Assembly (NCBI RefSeq): GCF_041365945.1 | Contig: NZ_JBGFSK010000017.1 | Span: 2,555-12,733 of the forward strand | Direction: 5' to 3' | DNA: 10,179 bases | DNA from: Janibacter sp. GXQ6167 | GTDB taxonomy: Bacteria > Actinomycetota > Actinomycetes > Actinomycetales > Dermatophilaceae | Shown: positions 538 through 9,919 of the stretch, piece after piece | Position numbering within the stretch: position 1 is the stretch's first letter | How the letters are laid out: every line of letters starts with the position of its first letter | Notes under the pieces: model-generated | What the model was told of the DNA's origin: nothing | The model's input: only the letters and a program-made list of their open reading frames with translations | The model's database searches: none | Made by a program: the position numbers and the translations under genes

Positions 538-1123
538 TCACTCGGCCGCTACGACGGCCAATCGATCAAGGTCTCTCACCTCCATCCGATACAACAGCGC
601 CTCGTGGCGCACGACGTGCTCGTCGACACCGATCGTGGTGACCCCGTCGAACCGACCAGGATCGTCGATCAGGCGCCGCTTGCCCTCCGCGAGCACCGCA
701 GTGTTCGCGGCGCTCCAGGAAACCCCAAGACCGGCGGCGACACGGGTCACGGTGAGGTGGTCGACGACGATGCCCCGCAGCGCCCACTCCACGCCGAGGC
801 GGGAGATCTTCGCTCGTGGCGCGGCGGCGCGAGTCATGTCCCGCCGCCACGTCCGCCGGCAGTGCGCGCACCGGTAGCGGCGGACCCGGACCAGAAGCGT
901 TGTCGGCCTATGCCCGAACGGCTCATGCGCGAGTCGACGCGTCACCGTGTCCCGCGACACACCCCTCCGCCCCGCACTTCCGACACCAGGGGTCCACCTC
1001 GACCGACCGACACTCGATCATCGCCCGGTCCCGCTCGAGCAGCTGGCCGACCGCTTCGAGCCCGAGTTCATCGAGGCGGCAGAACGTGGTCAGGTCAGGG
1101 GTCGCGAAAGTAGGGTGGAGCAC
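538..1123 (-). pseudogene. ISL3-family transposase, N-terminal ~195 codons only, interrupted by at least one frameshift (near 925-960) and 3'-truncated.
   Basis: Two overlapping minus-strand ORFs (923..1123 and 538..960) together reconstruct a contiguous ISL3 transposase N-terminus across different frames. No ATG lies in frame upstream; the track's M at 1123 is a GTG. An alternative MMEVLHARHPER... start lies in another frame, which suggests further decay. Confidence 0.7.
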
Positions 1124-1202: not shown

Positions 1203-1236
1203 CTCACCCGACTACACCCTCATTCGTGAAGAGCCC
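1203..1236 (-). repeat. Terminal inverted repeat (outer end at ~1236) of the ISL3-family element. Its exact inner boundary is uncertain.
   Basis: RC of plus strand 1228-1236 = GGGCTCTTC, followed by ACGAATGAGGGTGTAG. The integrase reading frame reads through this sequence into a stop (…IGLFTNEGVVG*), marking the insertion junction. Confidence 0.45.
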
Positions 1237-1653
1237 GATAAGACGGGCGACGTTGCGGCTGACGAGTTCGTCGCGCATCGCGCGGGTCAGGGCGGCGGAC
1301 AGTACGGTGCGGAACTTCTGTGCGGTGCGGATTGAGTGGCCCTCGTCGAGCAGCGCGCAGGCGGCGTTCTGCACGTCGCGCACGGTGAGCTGGGTCAGGC
1401 GCTTGCTGCCGATGCGAGGAAGGATGTGCAGTCGCACGACGCCCTCGTATCCCCGTGCGGTGTTGCGTCGGTTGCGGCGCGGCACGACTGTCTCTAGCCA
1501 CTGCTGCAGATAGCCGGCGACCGTGACCTGTGAGTTCGGGGTCAGGATGCCGCGGCCCTCGTGCCGCGGCCCGCCCGGGCGCTTGCGTCGCCTTGCGACC
1601 CGCCGGATCGGCTCGAAAAGACGTTCTGTGGTATATCTATTACGAGAGGCCAT
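1204..1653 (-). pseudogene. Tyrosine recombinase / phage-type integrase, N-terminal core-binding (SAM-like) domain only. The native sequence spans ~1237..1653. The catalytic domain is missing because of the ISL3 insertion.
   Basis: Translation from ATG (RC of 1651-1653): MASRNRYTTERLFEPIRRVARRRKRPGGPRHEGRGILTPNSQVTVAGYLQQWLETVVPRRNRRNTARGYEGVVRLHILPRIGSKRLTQLTVRDVQNAACALLDEGHSIRTAQKFRTVLSAALTRAMRDELVSRNVARLI... This matches the integrase N-terminal core-binding domain pattern: YLxxWL, hydrophobic-rich helix (RLHILPRIG), and SxxTxxKxxxxLxxALxxA. The ORF then continues into the IS terminal repeat and stops. No R..HxxR..Y catalytic domain is present. Confidence 0.7.
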
Positions 1654-1714: not shown

Positions 1715-2329
1715 GTGGCCGCGCGAGTCGTCGATGTGCGTTGTCCGGGATGCGGGAGCGCCTGGAGCACCAACCAGCAGTTCTGCCAGTACTGCGGTCG
1801 CCAGGTGCTGATCAGCTCGATGTCCGACCTGATCAGCCTGGAAGCGCGCGACCTCAAGAAGCACGTCCGTACCTACGAGGACGCGCTGGACGAGGGCGCC
1901 GATGATCCGAGCGTGCATGCGGCGCTCGGCATGTGCCTGCTCAAGCTGGGGCTGCGCGACAAGGCGCTGTCGCACTTCGAGGATGCGCTGCTCGATGACA
2001 TCGAGAACTCGGAACCGTACTTCTACGCCGCCGTCGCGTCGCTGGGTGGCAAGAAGCCGTTCCTGGTTCCGCTGGCTGGCATCCGCCGCGCGGAGGAGTA
2101 CCTCACGGCGGCGCTGCGGCTCGAGGAGCGCGGAATCTACGCCTACCTCTACGGGTACATCCGCTTCGACTACTACGAGCGCAAGTCGCTGAACGTCGAG
2201 CCGTCGTACCAGCACTACCTGCAGCAGGCAGTGCTTCGCGGTGTGACCGATCTGGACATCCAGACGCTGTTCGAGCTGCTGGAGATCGTCCCTTCGTCCG
2301 CTTCCATTCCGACCAGCGTTTCCGCCTGA
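1715..2329 (+). CDS. Zinc-ribbon protein with a C-terminal TPR-like, all-helical domain (204 aa from the GTG at 1715). It is possibly a YdjG-like component.
   Basis: It is the first gene of the co-directional operon. GGAGG at 1702-1706 lies 8 nt upstream of the GTG at 1715. Starting here avoids overlap with the integrase fragment on the opposite strand. The N-terminus has the ribbon CPGCG-x9-FCQYCG (1742-1800). The remainder (…ALGMCLLKLGLRDKALSHFEDALLDD…EEYLTAALRLEERGIYAYLYGYIRFDYYERKS…) is TPR-like helical. The 1523..1714 extension in the ORF track would overlap the integrase start and is RP-rich, so I reject it. Confidence 0.7.
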   Translation: MAARVVDVRCPGCGSAWSTNQQFCQYCGRQVLISSMSDLISLEARDLKKHVRTYEDALDEGADDPSVHAALGMCLLKLGLRDKALSHFEDALLDDIENSEPYFYAAVASLGGKKPFLVPLAGIRRAEEYLTAALRLEERGIYAYLYGYIRFDYYERKSLNVEPSYQHYLQQAVLRGVTDLDIQTLFELLEIVPSSASIPTSVSA

Positions 2330-2365: not shown

Positions 2366-3061
2366 ATGGCCATCAACTATGAGCGCAACAAGAAGTACTT
2401 CAAGCAGTCCAGCCCCAAGGCCGGCATCATCCTGATCGTGATCGGCCTGGTGCTGACGCTCGCCCTCCCCGAGGCGGGCAAGCTCGTCGGCATCCTGGGC
2501 ATCCTGGGTGGCGCGGCGCTGATCTACTTCCAGTTCGCGGGCAAGCCGAGCGACGCGGACATCGACTCGGACGCTGCTGCCGCCATCGCGGACGTGAAGA
2601 AGCGCGCGCTGGGCAAGCTCGGTCTGGACGAGGACGAGGTCAAGCTCATCGACCCGGTGATCGTTCACGGCTACTACTACAAGAACATCGCCTCGGGCGT
2701 GCAGGTCAAGCTCGGCAAGGACCGCGTCTTCCGTTCCTCGAACTACGAGGGCGTCGTGCTGTTCTTCAGCGAGCACCAGCTGCACGCGTTCAAGTTCCAG
2801 TTCTCTCTCGTCTCGCCGCAGGAGAGCCGCGAGCAGACCGACGAGTACTTCTACAAGGACGTCGTGTCGGTGGCGACGCAGTCGGAGACGTTCAAGATCA
2901 ACGACATCAAGGGCAACAGCCAGCAGGTCAACTTCGAGGAGTTCAAGCTCACCACCACGGGTGGCACCTCGATCACTTCGTCGATCCGCGACGAGGGCTC
3001 GGTCAGCCGCGTCATCTCCGGCGCGCGCAGCCTGATTCGCGAGAAGAAGATCGCGTCCTGA
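2366..3061 (+). CDS. Membrane-anchored protein (231 aa). It has an N-terminal hydrophobic hairpin (AGIILIVIGLVLTLAL…LVGILGILGGAALIYF) and a soluble ~170-aa domain. It is possibly YdjH-like.
   Basis: ATG at 2366 is preceded by GAGAGAGG (2348-2355), and it lies 36 bp after the stop of the upstream gene. The protein is unusually Lys-rich (K > R) for a high-GC host, yet it keeps high GC3 (AAG, TTC, TAC codons). Confidence 0.75.
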   Translation: MAINYERNKKYFKQSSPKAGIILIVIGLVLTLALPEAGKLVGILGILGGAALIYFQFAGKPSDADIDSDAAAAIADVKKRALGKLGLDEDEVKLIDPVIVHGYYYKNIASGVQVKLGKDRVFRSSNYEGVVLFFSEHQLHAFKFQFSLVSPQESREQTDEYFYKDVVSVATQSETFKINDIKGNSQQVNFEEFKLTTTGGTSITSSIRDEGSVSRVISGARSLIREKKIAS

Positions 3062-3112: not shown

Positions 3113-3156
3113 CACACCAATTCCGCTGCCCGAGCGTGACGTGAGGAGTGTGCCGT

Positions 3157-5841
3157 ATGCCCGCAGGCGACGCGCCCCTGACGTTCACGCCTCTCGCGCA
3201 GGGTGAAGTAGCCGCTGCTACGGTGGTCGAGGTCGTCCGCATCCCGCACGTCTCCGTGCTGGGCGATGATCCGGCTGCCGAGCTGGTGCAGCAGTCCAAG
3301 CGGGACTTCGTCAGCCTGCTGTTCGAGGCGTACCAGTCGTACCGCGGACAGTACGAGGACGGCCCCGACCGAGCTAGCGACTGCGCTCTGGAACTGCTTT
3401 GGCAAGCACACCCCATTCAGGGCCAGCCGCACGCCGCCGACCTCACGCTATTCATCATCGTTCGCGCGATCGGCGCGAACCGGGACGACGCAGCGGCGGT
3501 TGTCAACGAGCTGCACGCTGTCGTGATCAGCGCGCTCACGCTCGGCGGCTTCGACTACGCAGATCGTCCTGCCTCCGCGATCGGCGCCCAGGCGGCGGAA
3601 CGGTCGGTTGCGCTCGTGAAGGAGGAGTGGATTGAGAACCTCGGCAACCAGATCCTGCCGAGCGCCTTCGCCTTCCACCGTATCCCCACGGGCAGCCGTG
3701 ATCTCTCACGTATCGCCAGCGCCCTAACCGAGGTGCCCGGTGCGTCCCTCTCGGTTCAGCTGATCCCGGCGACACTGGAGCCTGACGAGCGGACTGCTAT
3801 CGAGCAGCTGACGCTGGCGCTCACGACCCTCGCCAACGGTGTGACGGATCAGTCGATCGGTACCGTCAGCTTCACCGCGGCGAAGCGCCTCGCGGAGATG
3901 TACTCGTATCTGGAGGGGCACAAGGACTCGCCCCTGTTTCTGTTTAACGTCGTCGTCTCCGGGCCGAAGCTCGCCGTGCCGGTGATCGCCAACCGGGTGC
4001 TCGGTCACCTCTCCGCCGACGCCGAGGTAGGCGCGCTGGCGGCACGCTTCGTCGACGCCACAGCCCTGGTGCCACGAGGCGATGCGTCCTTCGTCGCTGC
4101 ACCGTGGCAGCTGAACGAGACGCTGCTCGACCAGACTCGTGATCCGTCGCTCTGGGCGGCGGGCCGCAATCCCGGTGAGGCATTCTACCGGCTGCCGTTC
4201 CTGCTGACGGCATTCGAGGCATCGGAGTTGTTCCGTCTGCCGATCGGCAGTGACACGGTCGGCGCCGGGCTGACGGTGAACACCACGACCCGGCACTCGC
4301 GCAACTACTCGGCCGGCGTGATCGGGAGCTCGAGCATCGAAGCCGGGCGACTCGCCGGGGCGGCCGAGGTCTCGATCGGGTTCGGGCATACCGACCTGAC
4401 CAAGCACGCTTTCGTCACGGGGACGCCCGGTTCGGGTAAGACGACGTTCACGGTCGGGCTGCTCGACCGGCTCTGGCACGAGCACGGCATCCCGTATCTG
4501 GTGATCGAGCCGGCGAAGAACGAGTACCGGGCGCTGATCGAGACGACGCCGGATCTGCAGGTGTTCACCCCGGGCAAGGATCATCTGTCTCCGCTTGTGC
4601 TGAACCCGTTCCTGCCGCCAGCGGGCGTGCGGGTGCAGAGCTACAAGTCGACCCTCAAGACGGCGTTCGCAGCCGCGGTCACGATGACGAGCCCCCTGGA
4701 CAAGATCTTCGAGGACGCCCTCTCAGCCACGTACTCGCGGTTTGGCTGGTTCGATGCCGACACAGCCGCCGATGGCCGTGAGGTGTTCTCTATCCGCGAC
4801 TTCCTGGCCGTTTTCCAGGAGACCTTCGTCCGCATCGGCTACACCGGAGACGCGGCCAACATCGGACGAGCAGGCCAGGTGCGCCTGCAGAGTCTGGTTG
4901 GCCTGTTCGACACCTACCCTTCGATCCCTGTCGAGGATCTGCTGTCGAAACCCACGGTAATCGAGCTGGCAGGGATCGAGAACAGCGACGACAAGGCCCT
5001 CTACATCGCGCTCATCCTGCTGCAGGTCCTCGCCTACGTGAACGCCAACGTCGCCGGCGACGGGAAACTCAAGCACGTCCTCCTGCTCGAAGAAGCCCAC
5101 GTCTTGCTCGACGCCGACGACGCCAGCGGACCGGGCGAAGCGGACCCCGCCGCGATTGCGAAGAAGCTGCTCAAACGCATGTTGGCCGAGATCCGCTCCT
5201 ACGGCGTCGGCATCATCGTGGCCGATCAGTCGCCACGCAAGGTCGGCTCGGACGTGGTGGCGCTCACGAACATCAAGCTCGGGTTCCGGCTGGTCGAGGC
5301 CGCAGACAAGGAGATCCTGGCCGAGAGCACCAACATGAGCGACGCGCAGCGCGAGCGGCTGGCGCGGCTCCGGCCGGGCGAGGCACTCCTGTTCTACGAC
5401 CGCCTCGAAGACCCCGAGGAGATCGCCACAGCCGACTGGCGCGCCCAGCGCGGCATCCCGACGTTCGTGTCCGATGAGGAGATCGCCCGAAAGGTCACTT
5501 ACTGGCAGCGGCACCCGGAACTGCTCATGCCATACCCGGAGAGCGCCTACATCGGGGGCTGGGACGCCTCGGTTGCCGGTGCGGGCAAGGAGATCGCCCG
5601 GCGCCTCTTCGCCGCGCACGTCCCGGCCGGCGATGTCGGCGTCAAGAGATTCGGCAGCATCTACCGGCAGCTCGATGCGTTCATCGCCGCCGAACTTCCC
5701 GCGTCGATCCCGAACACGCCGGCCCTGCGGCGAGCGGTCAAGGTCAACTTCCTGCGGCTGGTCAAGTACGAGTCGCAGATCCCACTGTCGGACGCCACGA
5801 TCCACAAGACCCTCGAAGCCGAGAGGAGCCGCACAGCATGA
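3157..5841 (+). CDS. HerA/FtsK-superfamily (DUF87 / HerA-like) P-loop ATPase, 894 aa. The ~420-aa N-terminal domain is unassigned.
   Basis: GAGGAG (3143-3148) lies 8 nt upstream of the ATG at 3157; the track's GTG at 3148 has no spacer. Walker A is GTPGSGKTT (~4420-4446), followed by YLVIEPAKNEY and LVLNPF; HerA proteins have …IFDPHGEY…INPF in the same positions. Walker B is HVLLLEEAHVLL (~5074-5100). The C-terminal motif GVGIIVADQSPRKVGSDVVALTNIKLGFRL matches the HerA 'RKYGvgl.lvtQrPsel…' region. The stop overlaps the next start (ATGA at 5838-5841). Confidence 0.85.
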   Translation: MPAGDAPLTFTPLAQGEVAAATVVEVVRIPHVSVLGDDPAAELVQQSKRDFVSLLFEAYQSYRGQYEDGPDRASDCALELLWQAHPIQGQPHAADLTLFIIVRAIGANRDDAAAVVNELHAVVISALTLGGFDYADRPASAIGAQAAERSVALVKEEWIENLGNQILPSAFAFHRIPTGSRDLSRIASALTEVPGASLSVQLIPATLEPDERTAIEQLTLALTTLANGVTDQSIGTVSFTAAKRLAEMYSYLEGHKDSPLFLFNVVVSGPKLAVPVIANRVLGHLSADAEVGALAARFVDATALVPRGDASFVAAPWQLNETLLDQTRDPSLWAAGRNPGEAFYRLPFLLTAFEASELFRLPIGSDTVGAGLTVNTTTRHSRNYSAGVIGSSSIEAGRLAGAAEVSIGFGHTDLTKHAFVTGTPGSGKTTFTVGLLDRLWHEHGIPYLVIEPAKNEYRALIETTPDLQVFTPGKDHLSPLVLNPFLPPAGVRVQSYKSTLKTAFAAAVTMTSPLDKIFEDALSATYSRFGWFDADTAADGREVFSIRDFLAVFQETFVRIGYTGDAANIGRAGQVRLQSLVGLFDTYPSIPVEDLLSKPTVIELAGIENSDDKALYIALILLQVLAYVNANVAGDGKLKHVLLLEEAHVLLDADDASGPGEADPAAIAKKLLKRMLAEIRSYGVGIIVADQSPRKVGSDVVALTNIKLGFRLVEAADKEILAESTNMSDAQRERLARLRPGEALLFYDRLEDPEEIATADWRAQRGIPTFVSDEEIARKVTYWQRHPELLMPYPESAYIGGWDASVAGAGKEIARRLFAAHVPAGDVGVKRFGSIYRQLDAFIAAELPASIPNTPALRRAVKVNFLRLVKYESQIPLSDATIHKTLEAERSRTA

Positions 5842-7019
5842 GCGACTACGGCACCGACATTGCAGACGCCCCCGTCGACACCGGCGCGGACGTCAGCGTG
5901 CCCGATACGACCGACTACGCCGACGAGCCGGTCGACCTGGCCGAGACCCCGCCCGAGTCGGAGGCGCCCGAGGCCGAGGAGGCGCCGCCCGCCGAAGACC
6001 TCTCGGAGCCCGCAGCAGATGAACTGAGCGGCACGGCGGAGACGCCGGCGGATGCGGAGGCACCCGTCGACCTGGGCGCGGCCCCGGAAACGGCCGACGC
6101 CGCCCCGGAACAGCCCCAGGACTGGCAGGAGGGCGAGGTCGTCGATCTCGGCGACGACGCTGCCCCCGACGCCCCGCAGGAGGACGAGACCGCCGAGGCG
6201 GACGATCCTGCCGGGCGCGACCTGGGTGATCCCGACCTGGCCGACAGCCCGGAGGCCGAGGCTCCCACGGATAGCGCCGGTGAGGATCTGACGACACCGA
6301 CGGACGACGAACCGGGCGCCGGTGATGCGCCGACTGACGCCGACGAGCAGGTACCTGAGGCGGCGGAGATTGAGCCCGAGGCCGCAAACGACGTGACGGA
6401 TGCCGAACCCGAGCCCAGGGTCGATGAGTTGACAGAGGCGGCCCGGGATGAGGCCCGCCCCGCCGACGAGCTGCGCGCCGAGTACTACGCCGACGTGGCT
6501 GATGTGCTGGCCGATGACACACCATCCGACGCCGAGCCGGTCGAGACGCAGGACACTCCCGGAGCAGACGCTGCCGAGGCGCCGGAGTCGAGCGATCACG
6601 CGGACGCCGCCAATGACCGCAGCAACTCCCCAGAGAACGAGGCACTGACCTCGGCGCTAGCCGAGAAAGGCCTGTCGCTGGAGCCGGTCGATCGCTTCGA
6701 CTACAGCGACAACCCGGTTCTCGGCTACCGCGAGTCCGCCCCGCCCGAAGACGTCGCGTACGCCGTCAACGCCTGGAACGACGAGATCGCGCCCGGCATC
6801 GCGGCCGGCGCGACCCGTGAGGACTTCGCCGCCTACGACCAGGAGCACGGCCTCGAAGGGCAGCGGCAGCTGGCCGGCGTCTACGACTACATGCTCGGCG
6901 GCGACGCGATCAAGAGCGGCGGAGAGCGCGAGGACGGATCGCTCGACGTCACCGGCGGCAGGCACCGCCTGGAACAGGCGCGTCTGAACGGCGTCCAGTA
7001 CCTGCCCGTGAGGAAGTAG
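5838..7019 (+). CDS. Acidic, low-complexity protein (393 aa). It has a ~270-aa D/E/A/P-rich, presumably disordered N-terminal region and a ~120-aa C-terminal globular domain.
   Basis: Translationally coupled by an ATGA overlap, with GAGAGGAG at 5821-5828. The frame shows clean high-GC codon usage (GAC/GAG/GCC/CCC), while the alternative frames are Arg/Pro-rich junk. The C-terminus contains …VYDYMLGGDAIKSGGEREDGSLDVTGGRHRLEQARLNGVQYLPVRK. The GGxHRxxxAxxxG…PV stretch is reminiscent of ParB/Srx box II, but that is tentative. Confidence 0.65.
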   Translation: MSDYGTDIADAPVDTGADVSVPDTTDYADEPVDLAETPPESEAPEAEEAPPAEDLSEPAADELSGTAETPADAEAPVDLGAAPETADAAPEQPQDWQEGEVVDLGDDAAPDAPQEDETAEADDPAGRDLGDPDLADSPEAEAPTDSAGEDLTTPTDDEPGAGDAPTDADEQVPEAAEIEPEAANDVTDAEPEPRVDELTEAARDEARPADELRAEYYADVADVLADDTPSDAEPVETQDTPGADAAEAPESSDHADAANDRSNSPENEALTSALAEKGLSLEPVDRFDYSDNPVLGYRESAPPEDVAYAVNAWNDEIAPGIAAGATREDFAAYDQEHGLEGQRQLAGVYDYMLGGDAIKSGGEREDGSLDVTGGRHRLEQARLNGVQYLPVRK

Positions 7020-7056: not shown

Positions 7057-8256
7057 ATGAAGATCTACGACGTCATCAAGAACGAGACCGGCCTTCTCAA
7101 CGACGGCCTGGGCTCGAAGGCCGTGCTGGCGTGGAAGTTCACCGGTGAGGACTTCAACGACAACACGCAGCTGATCGTCTCCGAATCGGAGGAGGCGATC
7201 TTCATCCGCGACGGCATCGCCGTGGCGACCTTCGGCGGCGGCCGCTACACGCTCAACAGCAACAACCACCCCTTCATCGGCAGGCTGAGGAACCTGCTCT
7301 CCGGCGGGGTGAGCGCGTTCAGCTCGCGGGTGTACTTCGTCAACATCGATCACAAGTTGGAACTGCTGTGGGGCACCGACAGCCCGATCCAGCTCCGCGA
7401 CCCGGTCTGGAGCCTGCAGACCAGCGTGCAGGCGCGCGGCTCGTACTCGATCCAGGTGACGGACTCCAAGAAGTTCCTGATCAAACTGCTCGGCACCAAC
7501 ATCCAGGTTTTCGACGAGCAGCAGCTCGCCGGCTACTTCCGCAGCGCCTTCTCGCAGCACATCCGCGGACAGATCGCCCGCTACATCCGCGACTCCGGCC
7601 AGGAGATCCTGGAGATCACCTCGGACATCGAGCTGCTGGCCGAGCAGCTGCACCCGAGGCTCGCACCGCTGCTGGATGAGTACGGCGTGAAGCTCGTCAA
7701 CTTCTACATCGCCGCGATCGACATCCCCACCGACGACCCGAACCGCCAAGTGCTGGAGAACTCGATCGCACAGAAGCAGGCCAAGCTGCAGAGCGCGCAG
7801 GGCGATAAGGCCGTCATGGGGCTGCTCGGGGAAGACTGGGCCAGGCAGCAGTCGGCCACCATCCTCACCGAGCTCGCCAAGAACCCCGGCGCGGGTGGCG
7901 TGGCTTCCGCGGGTGCCGCAGCAGGCGTTGGCCTGGCTGCGGGCAGCGTCTTCGGGGAGATGGCGACGCAGATGTTCACGCGCCCCGTCCAGCCCGCAGG
8001 CGACCCGATGGCTGGCAATGTCGGGCGCAACCGCACATCGCGCTTCTCGCCCGCAGAGCCTGCCGCGCCGGCCGCCGCCGAGACGTGTCCGGGCTGCGGC
8101 GCGAGCGTGGCGGCGGGAGCGAAGTTCTGCCCGGAGTGCGGCAACCGTCTCGCACCTCAGCAGGTGCCCTGCTCGGGTTGCGGAACCGCAATCGCGAGCA
8201 CGGCCAAGTTCTGCCCCGAATGCGGAACGCCGAACAACCAGGGAGCATCCTCATGA
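7057..8256 (+). CDS. SPFH/Band-7-family protein (COG4260 / PF13421-like, 'putative virion core protein' group) with C-terminal tandem (double) zinc ribbons, 399 aa. YdjI-like.
   Basis: The N-terminal ~250 aa match the COG4260 pattern as I recall it: MKIYDVIKNE…, GGRYTLNSNNHPFIG, YFVNIDHKLELLWGTDSPI, ARGSYSIQVTDSKKF. A Gly/Ala-rich linker follows. Then come two tandem ribbons, CPGCG-x9-FCPECG and CSGCG-x9-FCPECG (8086-8229). The stop overlaps the next start (ATGA at 8253-8256). Confidence 0.85.
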   Translation: MKIYDVIKNETGLLNDGLGSKAVLAWKFTGEDFNDNTQLIVSESEEAIFIRDGIAVATFGGGRYTLNSNNHPFIGRLRNLLSGGVSAFSSRVYFVNIDHKLELLWGTDSPIQLRDPVWSLQTSVQARGSYSIQVTDSKKFLIKLLGTNIQVFDEQQLAGYFRSAFSQHIRGQIARYIRDSGQEILEITSDIELLAEQLHPRLAPLLDEYGVKLVNFYIAAIDIPTDDPNRQVLENSIAQKQAKLQSAQGDKAVMGLLGEDWARQQSATILTELAKNPGAGGVASAGAAAGVGLAAGSVFGEMATQMFTRPVQPAGDPMAGNVGRNRTSRFSPAEPAAPAAAETCPGCGASVAAGAKFCPECGNRLAPQQVPCSGCGTAIASTAKFCPECGTPNNQGASS

Positions 8257-8930
8257 CCCGCACGATCCTGCGCGCCATCCTGTGGCTCGTCCCCATCGCC
8301 GTCTACGTCGCCATCTTCCTCATCCTCGAGGCCCCGCAGGGCGCGACGTTCTGGACGTCCGCACTGCTGCTGGCGTTCGCCTACGTCATGCTCGCCGTCA
8401 GTTTCGTCGCCGTGCCGCGCAGTCGGATAGCCGCGATCCTGGCCATGCCCCTGATCCTGGTGGCGAGCATCTACTTCACTGCCGAGCTCATCGCGGCCAG
8501 CATCTTCATCTACGTGCAGGACATTCCATACCCGTGGGTGATCATCACGCAGCTGATCCTGGCCGCGATCTTCCTCGTCGTGTTCCTCACCACCTTGTTG
8601 TCCAACGAGGCCATCGCCGCCCAGATCGAGACCCAGCACGCCGACGTCCTGGTGATCAAGAGCGCCGTCACCCGCATCACGGCCCTGGGACGTGTCGCCC
8701 ACGATCCGCGCCTGGCGAAGTCGCTGGACGGGCTGGCCGAGGAGTTCCGCTACAGCCCGACGATGCGCTCGAACCAGGTGCGCGAAGTCGACGCGCAGAT
8801 CGCCGTGCAGCTCGAGCGACTGGAGAGCCTCGTCCACATCCAAGCTTCGCAAGAGGATACCGTCGGCCAGATCGCGGCGATATCCGGGGCGCTCGCTTCA
8901 CGCAACGAGGCGATCAAGCTCCGCCAGTAG
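8253..8930 (+). CDS. Integral membrane protein (225 aa). It has 4 predicted TM helices and a ~75-aa C-terminal helical, coiled-coil-like cytoplasmic tail.
   Basis: ATG at 8253 with GGGAG at 8241-8245. It has four long hydrophobic segments (ILWLVPIAVYVAIFLIL; ALLLAFAYVMLAVSFVAV; AAILAMPLILVASIYFTAELIAASIFIYV; VIITQLILAAIFLVVFLTTLL). The track's longer ORF starting at 8085 overlaps the zinc-ribbon coding region of the upstream gene in another frame, so I reject it. Confidence 0.75.
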   Translation: MTRTILRAILWLVPIAVYVAIFLILEAPQGATFWTSALLLAFAYVMLAVSFVAVPRSRIAAILAMPLILVASIYFTAELIAASIFIYVQDIPYPWVIITQLILAAIFLVVFLTTLLSNEAIAAQIETQHADVLVIKSAVTRITALGRVAHDPRLAKSLDGLAEEFRYSPTMRSNQVREVDAQIAVQLERLESLVHIQASQEDTVGQIAAISGALASRNEAIKLRQ

Positions 8931-9376: not shown

Positions 9377-9919
9377 TCAAGGCCGGGGCGAACTCCCGAG
9401 CAGGGCGTGCAGCTGATGGCTGGCTGGTGAGACGGCGCGAATGCGGGTCTCGTGGAGGGCGGGGTCGTGCGTGCGCAGGTACATCGCCCAGAACGCCGCG
9501 TCGGCATACGTTGTGTGCAGATCTGACTGCGCCCGCCAGCCGCTCGAAGCGGTGCGCCGGTAGCCGACTTCGTAAGGGCCGCCATGCAGGAGTTCCTGCA
9601 CGAGTGATGCCGGGACGTCACCGACCGGGTAGGTGCTGCCGATATCGCCCACGAGGAGCACGTCGCCGTGCAACGCCGGCCGCTGCCTTGAAGTGGTGTC
9701 CCAGAACCAGCGCAGCGACGAGGCGCGCAGGTTCATCGGGAGCCCGTTTCGGCGGTCGTCGGCGTCGAGCCACATCGTGACACCTCGGCTCTCGATGTCG
9801 ATCGGGATCACCAGATCAGCGAGCTGCTGAATGTCTGCGAACCCTGCGACCTCCCGCGTTTCGAGTTGTTGCTCGATCTGCGCCGGGATGAGAACAGCCG
9901 TGACGGTCTCACCATTCAC
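9377..9919 (-). CDS. Hypothetical protein, 180 aa, Trp-rich. It may be a small mobile-element-associated protein.
   Basis: It is the longest ORF in this region, with a balanced amino-acid composition (MNGETVTAVLIPAQIEQQLETREVAGFADIQQLADLVIPIDIESRGVTMWLDADDRRNGLPMNLRASSLRWFWDT…). The overlapping plus-strand ORF 9370..9780 is Arg/Pro-rich junk. No convincing SD sits upstream, so confidence is moderate. Confidence 0.45.
   Translation of the reverse strand: MNGETVTAVLIPAQIEQQLETREVAGFADIQQLADLVIPIDIESRGVTMWLDADDRRNGLPMNLRASSLRWFWDTTSRQRPALHGDVLLVGDIGSTYPVGDVPASLVQELLHGGPYEVGYRRTASSGWRAQSDLHTTYADAAFWAMYLRTHDPALHETRIRAVSPASHQLHALLGSSPRP

Follow-up and report, generated by a model that had tools for sequence, protein, structure and literature searches.

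A predicted soluble SPFH protein with an exchangeable zinc-ribbon tail in a three-module gene cluster of Janibacter sp. GXQ6167

We analysed a stretch of 10,179 nucleotides (nt) from Janibacter sp. GXQ6167 (contig NZ_JBGFSK010000017.1, forward-strand positions 2,555 to 12,733; hereafter the window), which carries an operon of six tightly packed genes on the + strand, genes 1 to 6. The subject of this work is gene 5, which encodes an SPFH protein with two zinc ribbons at its C-terminus. Soluble SPFH proteins with zinc-ribbon tails form a widespread family, of which the gene 5 product is an ordinary representative. In the reading that we consider to be the probable one, the gene 5 product would be a soluble scaffold of the Band_7_1 type, with a flexible tail that bears an ancestral array of generic ribbons and acts as a docking module; the scaffold would be anchored by the gene 6 product and would organise a module made up of an ATPase and an effector. 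The operon is built of three modules, namely a zinc ribbon-TPR (ZnR-TPR) protein with a protein of two transmembrane (TM) helices (genes 1 and 2), a DUF87 ATPase with a polyacidic protein (genes 3 and 4), and the SPFH protein with a protein of four TM helices (genes 5 and 6). The coordinates of all features are collected in Table 1.

The SPFH protein and its zinc-ribbon tail

The gene 5 product matched the Pfam families Band_7_1 (PF13421; E = 1.3e-33, 116.9 bits, cut-off 24), DZR (PF12773; 2.4e-10, 40.8 bits, cut-off 27.3) and, in two stretches, Zn_Ribbon_1 (4.2e-11), which bears out what a preliminary description of the window had proposed, an SPFH protein with tandem zinc ribbons. Ribbon 1 extends from C344 to C361 (nt 8086-8139, or to 8142 if G362 is included) and ribbon 2 from C372 to C389 (nt 8170-8223, or to 8226 with G390). 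CxxCG and FCxxCG are separated by 8 residues, and not by 9 as had been given. Homologues of gene 5 number more than 1500, and PF13421 and PF12773 are both precomputed on nearly all of the 120 best listed. Among these 120, at least two ribbons are present in 112 and three in 9, and with them the eight cysteines of the tail are conserved.

The number of ribbons per tail varies from one to at least five. In the 74 loci spanned by a motif count (from 80 genomic loci with gene 5 homologues, which we fetched for comparison and denote by L numbers), there was one ribbon in 2, two in 20, three in 14 and four in 38, and SPFH tails that were read directly had up to five (L011). In gene 5 and in 60 of the 120 homologues the four CxxC knuckles follow each other at an even spacing of 10 residues, and therefore the second knuckle of ribbon 1 together with the first knuckle of ribbon 2 also matches the ribbon pattern. 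Thus, zinc ligation in the tail may be alternative or interleaved.

No stretch of 19 residues in the gene 5 product reached a mean Kyte-Doolittle hydropathy of 1.5. By this simple test the protein is predicted to be soluble, with no TM anchor of its own, the Gly/Ala-rich residues 277-307 aside. This Gly/Ala-rich motif is kept even in distant relatives and occurs in L009, L014, L026 and L033, between the SPFH/coiled-coil part and the tail, and within it Tandem Repeats Finder (TRF) detected a row of period 9 at nt 7890-7919. It is possible that the segment is a membrane-interacting element resembling a glycine zipper. A sequence search of the PDB with gene 5 returned nothing significant, PHROGs gave matches at the level of the ribbons only, and a phage collection yielded just two weak, unannotated matches.

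We analysed the age of the ribbon pair, which had been called near-identical and described as an internal tandem duplication visible in the DNA. The former is too strong, as identity between the two amounts to 13 of 20 residues, 37 of 60 nt and 7 of 20 third-codon positions. The latter holds in a statistical sense: over units of 28 codons, 43 of 84 nt match, compared with an in-frame background of 26.5±4.3. It does not hold at the third positions, nor for TRF, which reported no tandem repeat at 8086-8229 even at a score of 30. The sole direct repeat detected was a stretch of 23 nt encoding AKFCPECG (87% identity, spacing 84). Of the 13 residues that agree, only 6 have the same codon in both ribbons, versus 8.0 expected from codon usage alone; given this and the few third-position matches, the similarity in the DNA is wholly due to constraint at the protein level. 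In addition, both ribbons are kept in homologues down to 42% identity. The duplication is, thus, old and ancestral, and its synonymous sites are saturated. A recent local tandem duplication without particular function could account for the 23-nt repeat and for the excess of identity of the 28-codon units over background; the codon test and the occurrence of the ribbon pair across homologues, however, refute it, with the silence of TRF also against it, and we regard it as extremely improbable.

Neighbours of the SPFH genes

We examined the neighbourhoods of gene 5 homologues in the sample of 80 loci. Members of the gene 6 family were found in 61 of them, typically as the next gene downstream of the SPFH gene, and in the window the start of gene 6 overlaps the stop of gene 5 (ATGA). 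The gene 6 family has no Pfam match; judged by its hydropathy and by this linkage, it is a regular predicted membrane partner of gene 5-type SPFH proteins.

A second kind of neighbour carries ribbons itself. The gene at position +2 from the SPFH gene encodes a CxxC..CxxC ribbon in 44 of 76 loci, as opposed to 9 of 612 (1.5%) genes at positions five or more genes away, which served as background (Fisher p = 1e-39). A linkage that recurs in this way is real support for a functional connection of ribbon proteins with the SPFH family. Such partners come from at least three families that are unrelated to each other. One is the ZnR-TPR family of gene 1, present in only 9 of the 80 loci. Another has two or three TM helices and a C-terminal CxxCGA...ECEYCG ribbon, and often comes as two or three tandem paralogues. 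A third is similar to YdjG of Bacillus subtilis and has two N-terminal ribbons (Zn_Ribbon_TF, 2e-5; L068 and others). In clostridial loci (L011, L021, L035 and L008, with SPFH genes at about 10001-11300) the SPFH tails have up to five tandem ribbons, and the SPFH genes are followed by one to three paralogous genes for small membrane proteins whose middle part resembles a winged helix and which end in a CxxCGA..ECEYCG ribbon.

The tail of the SPFH protein can be exchanged. Six loci (L009, L014, L026, L033, L081 and L082) encode an SPFH protein that ends in a SHOCT domain. This is so in 4 of the 11 clusters that bear gene 1 (L014, L026, L081 and L082, all from Bacillota), where SHOCT stands in place of the SPFH ribbons and the ribbon of gene 1 is kept. 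Furthermore, ribbon-bearing neighbours are found beside SHOCT-tailed SPFH genes in 3 of 4 loci. The swap, together with ribbon partners beside SHOCT tails, means that the SPFH tail is an exchangeable terminal module and that the ribbons of the partners are independent of it. We infer, from architecture and by analogy, that the tail is an exchangeable docking module rather than an obligate partner of gene 1. The enrichment of ribbon partners at +2 and the exchange of ribbons for SHOCT are the new elements here; with partners from three families, they offer a testable handle on the role of the common 'orphan' ribbons in membrane scaffolds. The gene at +2 from the SHOCT-tailed SPFH gene of L033 (3154-4422) encodes a protein in which an N-terminal zinc ribbon is combined with a single TM helix and a Beta-lactamase2 domain (3.9e-24).

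The start of gene 1 is the GTG at 1715, with GGAGG at 1702-1706; this start fits because the homologues are about 200 amino acids (aa) long, including a Microbacterium protein of 204 aa annotated by NCBI. A search of 5.8 billion proteins gave 39 clusters at 90% identity for the gene 1 family. A hidden Markov model of full-length gene 1 gathered all ribbon proteins, SPFH proteins included (148 open reading frames, ORFs), and the count of 9 loci given above comes from a rerun without the ribbon. The ribbon of gene 1 scored below the cut-offs of DZR (23.1 bits, cut-off 27.3) and Zn_Ribbon_1 (18.2 bits, cut-off 25), and its four cysteines (C10, C13, C24 and C27) are present without exception in the 25 aligned homologues. 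In the AlphaFold2 (AF2) model, built with 25 homologues (pLDDT 91.3), a short N-terminal ribbon with short beta strands at residues 7-9 and 16-18 is followed by eight helices, and the best Foldseek matches in the PDB were TPR proteins (TTC0263, MamA and consensus TPRs; E about 1e-3). Hydropathy indicated no TM segment in gene 1. Neither PADLOC nor NCBIfam had a match for genes 1, 2, 4, 5 and 6, apart from weak, sub-threshold NCBIfam matches of TPR type for gene 1.

Gene 2, which has no Pfam match, has homologues after gene 1 in L001-L005, L014, L026, L081, L082 and L085. In the last of these the gene 1-gene 2 pair (7280-8647) stands alone beside an SMC gene, and no SPFH gene was present in the 18 kb examined. 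The loci with gene 1 coincide exactly with the closest relatives of gene 5 (at least 39% identity), from Actinomycetota, Opitutaceae and Bacillota. L081 has the order gene 1-gene 2-YidD-SPFH-gene 6, without the ATPase or the acidic protein. In Bacillota clusters (L081, 4039-4527; L082, 11488-11958; L026, 1560-2030) gene 2 is followed by an inserted gene for a TM protein whose YidD domain (PF01809, 5.9e-19) is that of the membrane protein insertion efficiency factor; the actinobacterial window has none.

The preliminary description had placed the same ribbon at the N-terminus of gene 1, and made its case dependent on the alignment of the three ribbons and on conserved cysteines. The cysteines are indeed conserved, in 112 of 120 gene 5 homologues and in 25 of 25 gene 1 homologues. 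The ribbons of gene 1 and gene 5 share 9 of 20 residues, every one of them at a motif position. Outside the cysteines, identity between gene 1 and gene 5 ribbons is 0.18-0.21, compared with 0.33-0.40 among gene 5 ribbons and 0.40 among gene 1 ribbons. The three ribbons are, by their sequences, alike only generically, in the CxxC-x10-CxxC, FCxxCG pattern of Zn_Ribbon_1/DZR (PF13240-type motif): they belong to the same class, and nothing closer than that is left of the claimed sameness.

The ATPase and the polyacidic protein

The gene 3 product matched DUF87 (PF01935) with 29.1 bits, above the cut-off of 23.2, and its N-terminal part of about 390 aa is uncharacterised. Its matches to the PADLOC models mad8 (9e-17) and HerA (1.7e-12) and to NCBIfam CedD, NCBIfam HerA and HerA chains in the PDB (1e-6) are all confined to the P-loop core. 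PADLOC matched no other gene in the window. The gene 3 family was found in only 6 of the 80 loci.

Gene 4 encodes an extremely acidic protein. Residues 1-262 are 33% Asp+Glu and 2% Lys+Arg; this N-terminal part is of low complexity, without a Pfam match and without a recognised trafficking domain (WXG, LXG, RHS and others). The C-terminal domain of about 130 residues has 239 representative homologues in a full HMMER scan, given which the empty result of a word-indexed search with the same domain was a failure of sensitivity. Among the homologues this domain is always C-terminal (median tail of 2 residues), on N-termini that vary and are mostly helical, with single members matching WXG100 models. 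As to its fold, all six matches of the domain profile in the PDB were ParB/Srx-fold proteins (SbnI, ParB and Noc), below threshold (E = 0.024-0.99), a ParB_N match at 6e-4 was found in just 1 of 35 homologues, and the AF2 model from the single sequence was poor (pLDDT 57).

Across loci, the position of gene 4 is occupied by polyacidic proteins with four unrelated C-termini. In L082 (14696-16495) the C-terminus is Pfam Gln_amidase/Tox-PL1 (1.6e-11, 45.7 bits, cut-off 24.1), and an ORF of 83 aa follows. The protein of L026 (5329-8109) has 926 aa and a C-terminus containing Cys and His, and is followed by an ORF of 132 aa; that of L005 (11799-13259) has 486 aa with an HG...SC motif. Tox-ParB and Tox-PL1 are among the listed toxin domains of polymorphic toxins (Zhang et al. 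2012, PMC3482391). Judged by their sequences, the proteins at this position display the pattern of polymorphic toxins, with a polyacidic N-terminus apparently replacing the known trafficking domains. The window has no immunity-sized ORF between genes 4 and 5, which are separated by 37 nt.

A homologue of gene 3 (35% identity) is also encoded on a Priestia megaterium plasmid (NZ_CP064271.1; L086, 7769-14694), directly followed by a gene for a 1135-aa protein that consists of acidic repeats of the TDTDTELQDD type and a helical C-terminal domain. No SPFH gene was found in the 20 kb of this plasmid that were examined, and therefore the ATPase and the polyacidic protein form a module of their own. 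Apart from the Priestia plasmid, the plasmid search returned generic DUF87 matches only. As L081, L085 and the Priestia plasmid each hold a part of the cluster, the cluster is modular. We found no published description of it in the literature on SPFH and defence, on SPFH, HerA and polymorphic toxins, or on DUF87 and toxins. The pair of a DUF87 ATPase and a protein of the polyacidic, polymorphic-toxin type is conserved, and no description of it was found; if real, it would represent a new way of handling bacterial toxins, and it is a more interesting lead than the ribbons.

Interpretation and genomic setting

An SPFH protein with a C-terminal ribbon and a ribbon-bearing partner in the same operon has already been described, in the pspA-ydjGHI (samGHI) operon of B. 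subtilis. There, YdjI consists of a Band-7 domain and a C-terminal ZnR, and YdjG combines a pair of ZnRs with an NTF2-like domain and a TM segment (Ravi et al. 2024, PMC11237479); YdjI is soluble, and its membrane foci depend on YdjG and YdjH (Scholz et al. 2021, PMC8581546). Like gene 5, YdjI/SamI is thus a soluble SPFH protein of the Band_7_1 family with a C-terminal ribbon, and its operon also specifies a ribbon-bearing partner and the membrane proteins that recruit it (PMC8581546, PMC11237479, PMC9239133); gene 5 likewise has a ribbon partner and membrane proteins in its operon. In several loci (L068 and others) a YdjG-like double-ribbon gene comes immediately after the homologue of gene 5. 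In the window, however, the ribbon partner is a soluble ZnR-TPR protein with one ZnR and no TM segment instead of a ZnR-NTF2-TM protein, the products of genes 2 and 6, which are the membrane partners, are without a Pfam match, and the DUF87 ATPase and the polyacidic toxin-like protein are inserted. Band_7_1 with DZR and Band_7_1 with SHOCT are both catalogued Pfam architectures, and PF13421 proteins are reported to be the most frequent carriers of SHOCT (Eberhardt et al. 2013, PMC3581485). Gene 5 has exactly the catalogued Band_7_1 and DZR architecture, with no difference at the protein level; what distinguishes its sub-clade (at least 39% identity to gene 5) within that architecture is the tie to the neighbourhood of genes 1, 2 and 6. 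The ribbon observation taken alone therefore adds little, as the architecture is catalogued and a ribbon partner is known from ydjGHI.

Other known systems resemble parts of the cluster. In the stomatin-NfeD, HflK/C-FtsH and flotillin-YqiJ/YuaF pairs the SPFH gene likewise lies beside, and is translationally coupled with, a gene for a polytopic membrane protein, and the SPFH protein is a presumed oligomeric scaffold; by contrast, Pfam detected no NfeD, FtsH or YqiJ/YuaF domain in the window, and gene 5 has no predicted TM anchor. We rejected a stomatin-NfeD pair. Polymorphic toxin systems with export by type VII secretion (EssC/YueA with WXG/LXG toxins) also combine a HerA/FtsK-superfamily ATPase with a protein whose toxin-type C-terminus varies between loci, and domains of the gene 4 type occur elsewhere on WXG100-like proteins. 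Gene 3, however, has a single P-loop of the DUF87 type, unlike the three-domain YueA/EssC; gene 4 has a polyacidic, disordered N-terminus in place of WXG100 or LXG, with no adjacent immunity gene in the window; and type VII systems have no SPFH or ZnR-TPR components. HerA anti-phage systems (SIR2-HerA and DUF4297-HerA) and MADS, with mad8, similarly pair a HerA-like ATPase with a variable effector on a mobile island, but the window has no SIR2, DUF4297 or other mad gene, and the matches of gene 3 do not go beyond the P-loop core. A known HerA defence system was rejected, since the cognate partner genes are absent and PADLOC matches gene 3 only.

In the arrangement that we favour, the SPFH domain would oligomerise under the membrane and the gene 6 product would anchor it there, much as YdjH and YdjG anchor YdjI. 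The ribbons, on a Pro/Ala-rich linker of about 35 residues, would form a multivalent, interchangeable module for docking or oligomerisation, directed at partners or at the membrane surface; they would be neither the specific mate of the gene 1 ribbon nor a reader of nucleic acids. Genes 1 and 2 would encode a separate adaptor pair. Between the two pairs lies the third module of this lineage, the DUF87/HerA-type ATPase and, in translational coupling with it, the polyacidic protein whose C-terminal domain resembles those of polymorphic toxins. This module would have been inserted there, and the SPFH and TPR modules would probably organise it at the membrane. Several points weigh against this arrangement. 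The Gly/Ala-rich segment could be membrane-spanning or re-entrant, which would change the topology of the ribbons and set the face of the membrane on which they lie. The likeness of gene 5 to YdjI consists in shared membership of a Pfam family, and by Pfam the ORFs of the window include neither PspA/ESCRT-III nor a TPM-domain YdjH. The docking role of the ribbons is drawn from architecture and analogy, and the enrichment of ribbon-bearing neighbours is equally predicted by direct contact between ribbons in lineages with ribbon tails.

Such contact is the core of another model, foreshadowed in the preliminary description, which saw the shared ribbons as assembly modules: the ribbons of genes 1 and 5 would be the same module, would bind each other or self-associate, and would nucleate the complex encoded by the operon. 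Both ribbons indeed have four cysteines in CxxC-x10-CxxC spacing and match the same Pfam models, invariant cysteines characterise both families, three phyla encode genes 1 and 5 together, and ribbon proteins are enriched beside SPFH-ribbon genes. The ribbons as conserved modules with enriched partners (44/76) stand, but a pairing of gene 1 with gene 5 does not follow from a motif so generic, with identity restricted to motif positions (0.18-0.21 outside the cysteines). In 4 of 11 gene 1 clusters the SPFH protein has a SHOCT tail and no ribbons while gene 1 retains its own, ribbon neighbours also accompany SHOCT-tailed SPFH genes (3 of 4 loci), and the gene 1-gene 2 pair occurs without an SPFH gene (L085). 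We, therefore, hold this model to be unlikely. More doubtful still, indeed very improbable, is a role of the ribbons in binding nucleic acid, which would link the SPFH scaffold to the DNA or RNA on which the HerA-type ATPase works. Zinc ribbons are capable of binding nucleic acids (PMC3581485) and the operon does encode a HerA/FtsK-family ATPase; most SPFH-ribbon loci, however, have no ATPase (gene 3 family in 6 of 80), the ribbon tail is exchangeable with SHOCT, and the ribbons are short, have few basic residues and vary widely in copy number.

A further reading, compatible with the arrangement that we favour, makes the toxin the point of the system. The cluster would then be a machine for handling toxins, in export and delivery or in abortive infection, in which the ATPase would work on the polyacidic, DNA-like N-terminal part of gene 4, with the SPFH-ribbon protein as scaffold and the ZnR-TPR protein as adaptor. 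It is supported by the polyacidic proteins with unrelated C-termini at the gene 4 position (Tox-PL1 in L082, 1.6e-11), by the C-terminal placement of the gene 4 domain on other N-termini, some of them WXG100-like, among the 239 representatives, by its resemblance to the ParB/Srx fold, which is that of Tox-ParB in polymorphic toxins (PMC3482391), and by the small ORFs after the toxin gene in L082 and L026. Moreover, translation of the ATPase and of the polyacidic protein is coupled, the two also occur together on the Priestia plasmid, and fragments of an integrase and an insertion sequence (IS) flank the cluster. On the other hand, the window offers no immunity-sized ORF in the gap from gene 4 to gene 5, PADLOC matches are to generic HerA and mad8 only, the ParB assignment is sub-threshold (best E = 0.024) with a poor AF2 domain model, and L081 has the SPFH/TPR core but neither ATPase nor toxin, so that the function of the SPFH protein does not depend on the toxin. 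We rate this reading as a serious possibility, though rather unlikely. A more detailed version is somewhat more tentative again: an undescribed membrane machine in which the gene 3 ATPase would engage the polyanionic N-terminus of gene 4 and export or activate an interchangeable C-terminal toxin domain (putatively ParB-like, a Tox-PL1 glutamine deamidase, or another papain- or caspase-like domain), with the SPFH-ribbon protein and its 4TM anchor and the ZnR-TPR protein and its 2TM partner positioning the machine. If true, it would constitute a new route of trafficking or activation for polymorphic toxins.

Table 1. Features of the window, with positions counted from its first letter.
Feature	Position	Strand	Evidence
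Gene 1: 204 aa, N-terminal zinc ribbon and TPR domain	1715..2329	+	GTG start, homologues, AF2, Foldseek
Gene 1 zinc ribbon CPGCGSAWSTNQQFCQYCG, C10 C13 C24 C27, residues 10-28	1742..1798	+	Cys conservation; sub-threshold Pfam
Gene 2: 231 aa, two N-terminal TM helices and soluble domain (predicted)	2366..3061	+	Hydropathy; gene 1 partner
Gene 3: 897-aa HerA/FtsK-superfamily P-loop ATPase (DUF87)	3148..5841	+	PF01935
Gene 4: polyacidic protein with C-terminal ParB/Srx-like toxin-type domain (putative)	5838..7019	+	Composition; start overlaps gene 3 stop (ATGA)
Gene 4 C-terminal domain, residues 264-393, invariant GxHR...G...P motif	6627..7016	+	Homologues; PDB profile matches
Gene 5: soluble SPFH protein (predicted), 399 aa, Band_7_1 and C-terminal double zinc ribbon	7057..8256	+	Pfam PF13421, PF12773
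Band_7_1 (SPFH) domain, residues 32-226	7150..7734	+	Best-scoring stretch of Pfam match
Gly/Ala-rich hydrophobic segment PGAGGVASAGAAAGVGLAAGSVFGEMATQMF, residues 277-307	7885..7977	+	Sequence; kept in relatives
Pro/Ala-rich linker, from Gly/Ala segment to ribbons	7978..8085	+	Sequence
Zinc ribbon 1 CPGCGASVAAGAKFCPECG, C344 C347 C358 C361	8086..8142	+	Sequence, Pfam, homologues
Zinc ribbon 2 CSGCGTAIASTAKFCPECG, C372 C375 C386 C389	8170..8226	+	Sequence, Pfam, homologues
Gene 6: 225 aa, 4-5 TM helices and helical tail (predicted)	8253..8930	+	Hydropathy; start overlaps gene 5 stop (ATGA)
Flank: ISL3-family transposase fragment	538..960	-	PF14690 3.7e-6
Flank: tyrosine integrase N-terminal fragment (SAM-like and central domains only)	1204..1520	-	PF14659 4.3e-10; without catalytic domain
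Flank: DUF3846 protein	9377..9919	-	PF12957 1.7e-5, under cut-off; phrog_3777

The window has a GC content of 66%, as high-GC actinobacterial DNA, and the intergenic gaps from gene 1 to gene 6 are 36, 86, -4, 37 and -4 nt, the negative values being the ATGA overlaps of start and stop at the gene 3/gene 4 and gene 5/gene 6 junctions. No tRNA genes, and no promoter or terminator signals above chance, were found in the window. The truncated integrase and the ISL3 fragment on the left and the DUF3846 gene on the right indicate that the operon lies on a decayed mobile island. The two fragments on the left (538-1857, - strand) abut each other directly upstream of gene 1; the - strand ORF at 1204-1857 runs over the start of gene 1 and is probably not coding throughout. 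Of the genomes found, that of Microbacterium sp. HA-8 is the closest, with 96% identity in the gene 5 product. Its locus, L001, has two tandem DUF3846-like genes (14985-16060), separated from gene 6 by an additional insertion.

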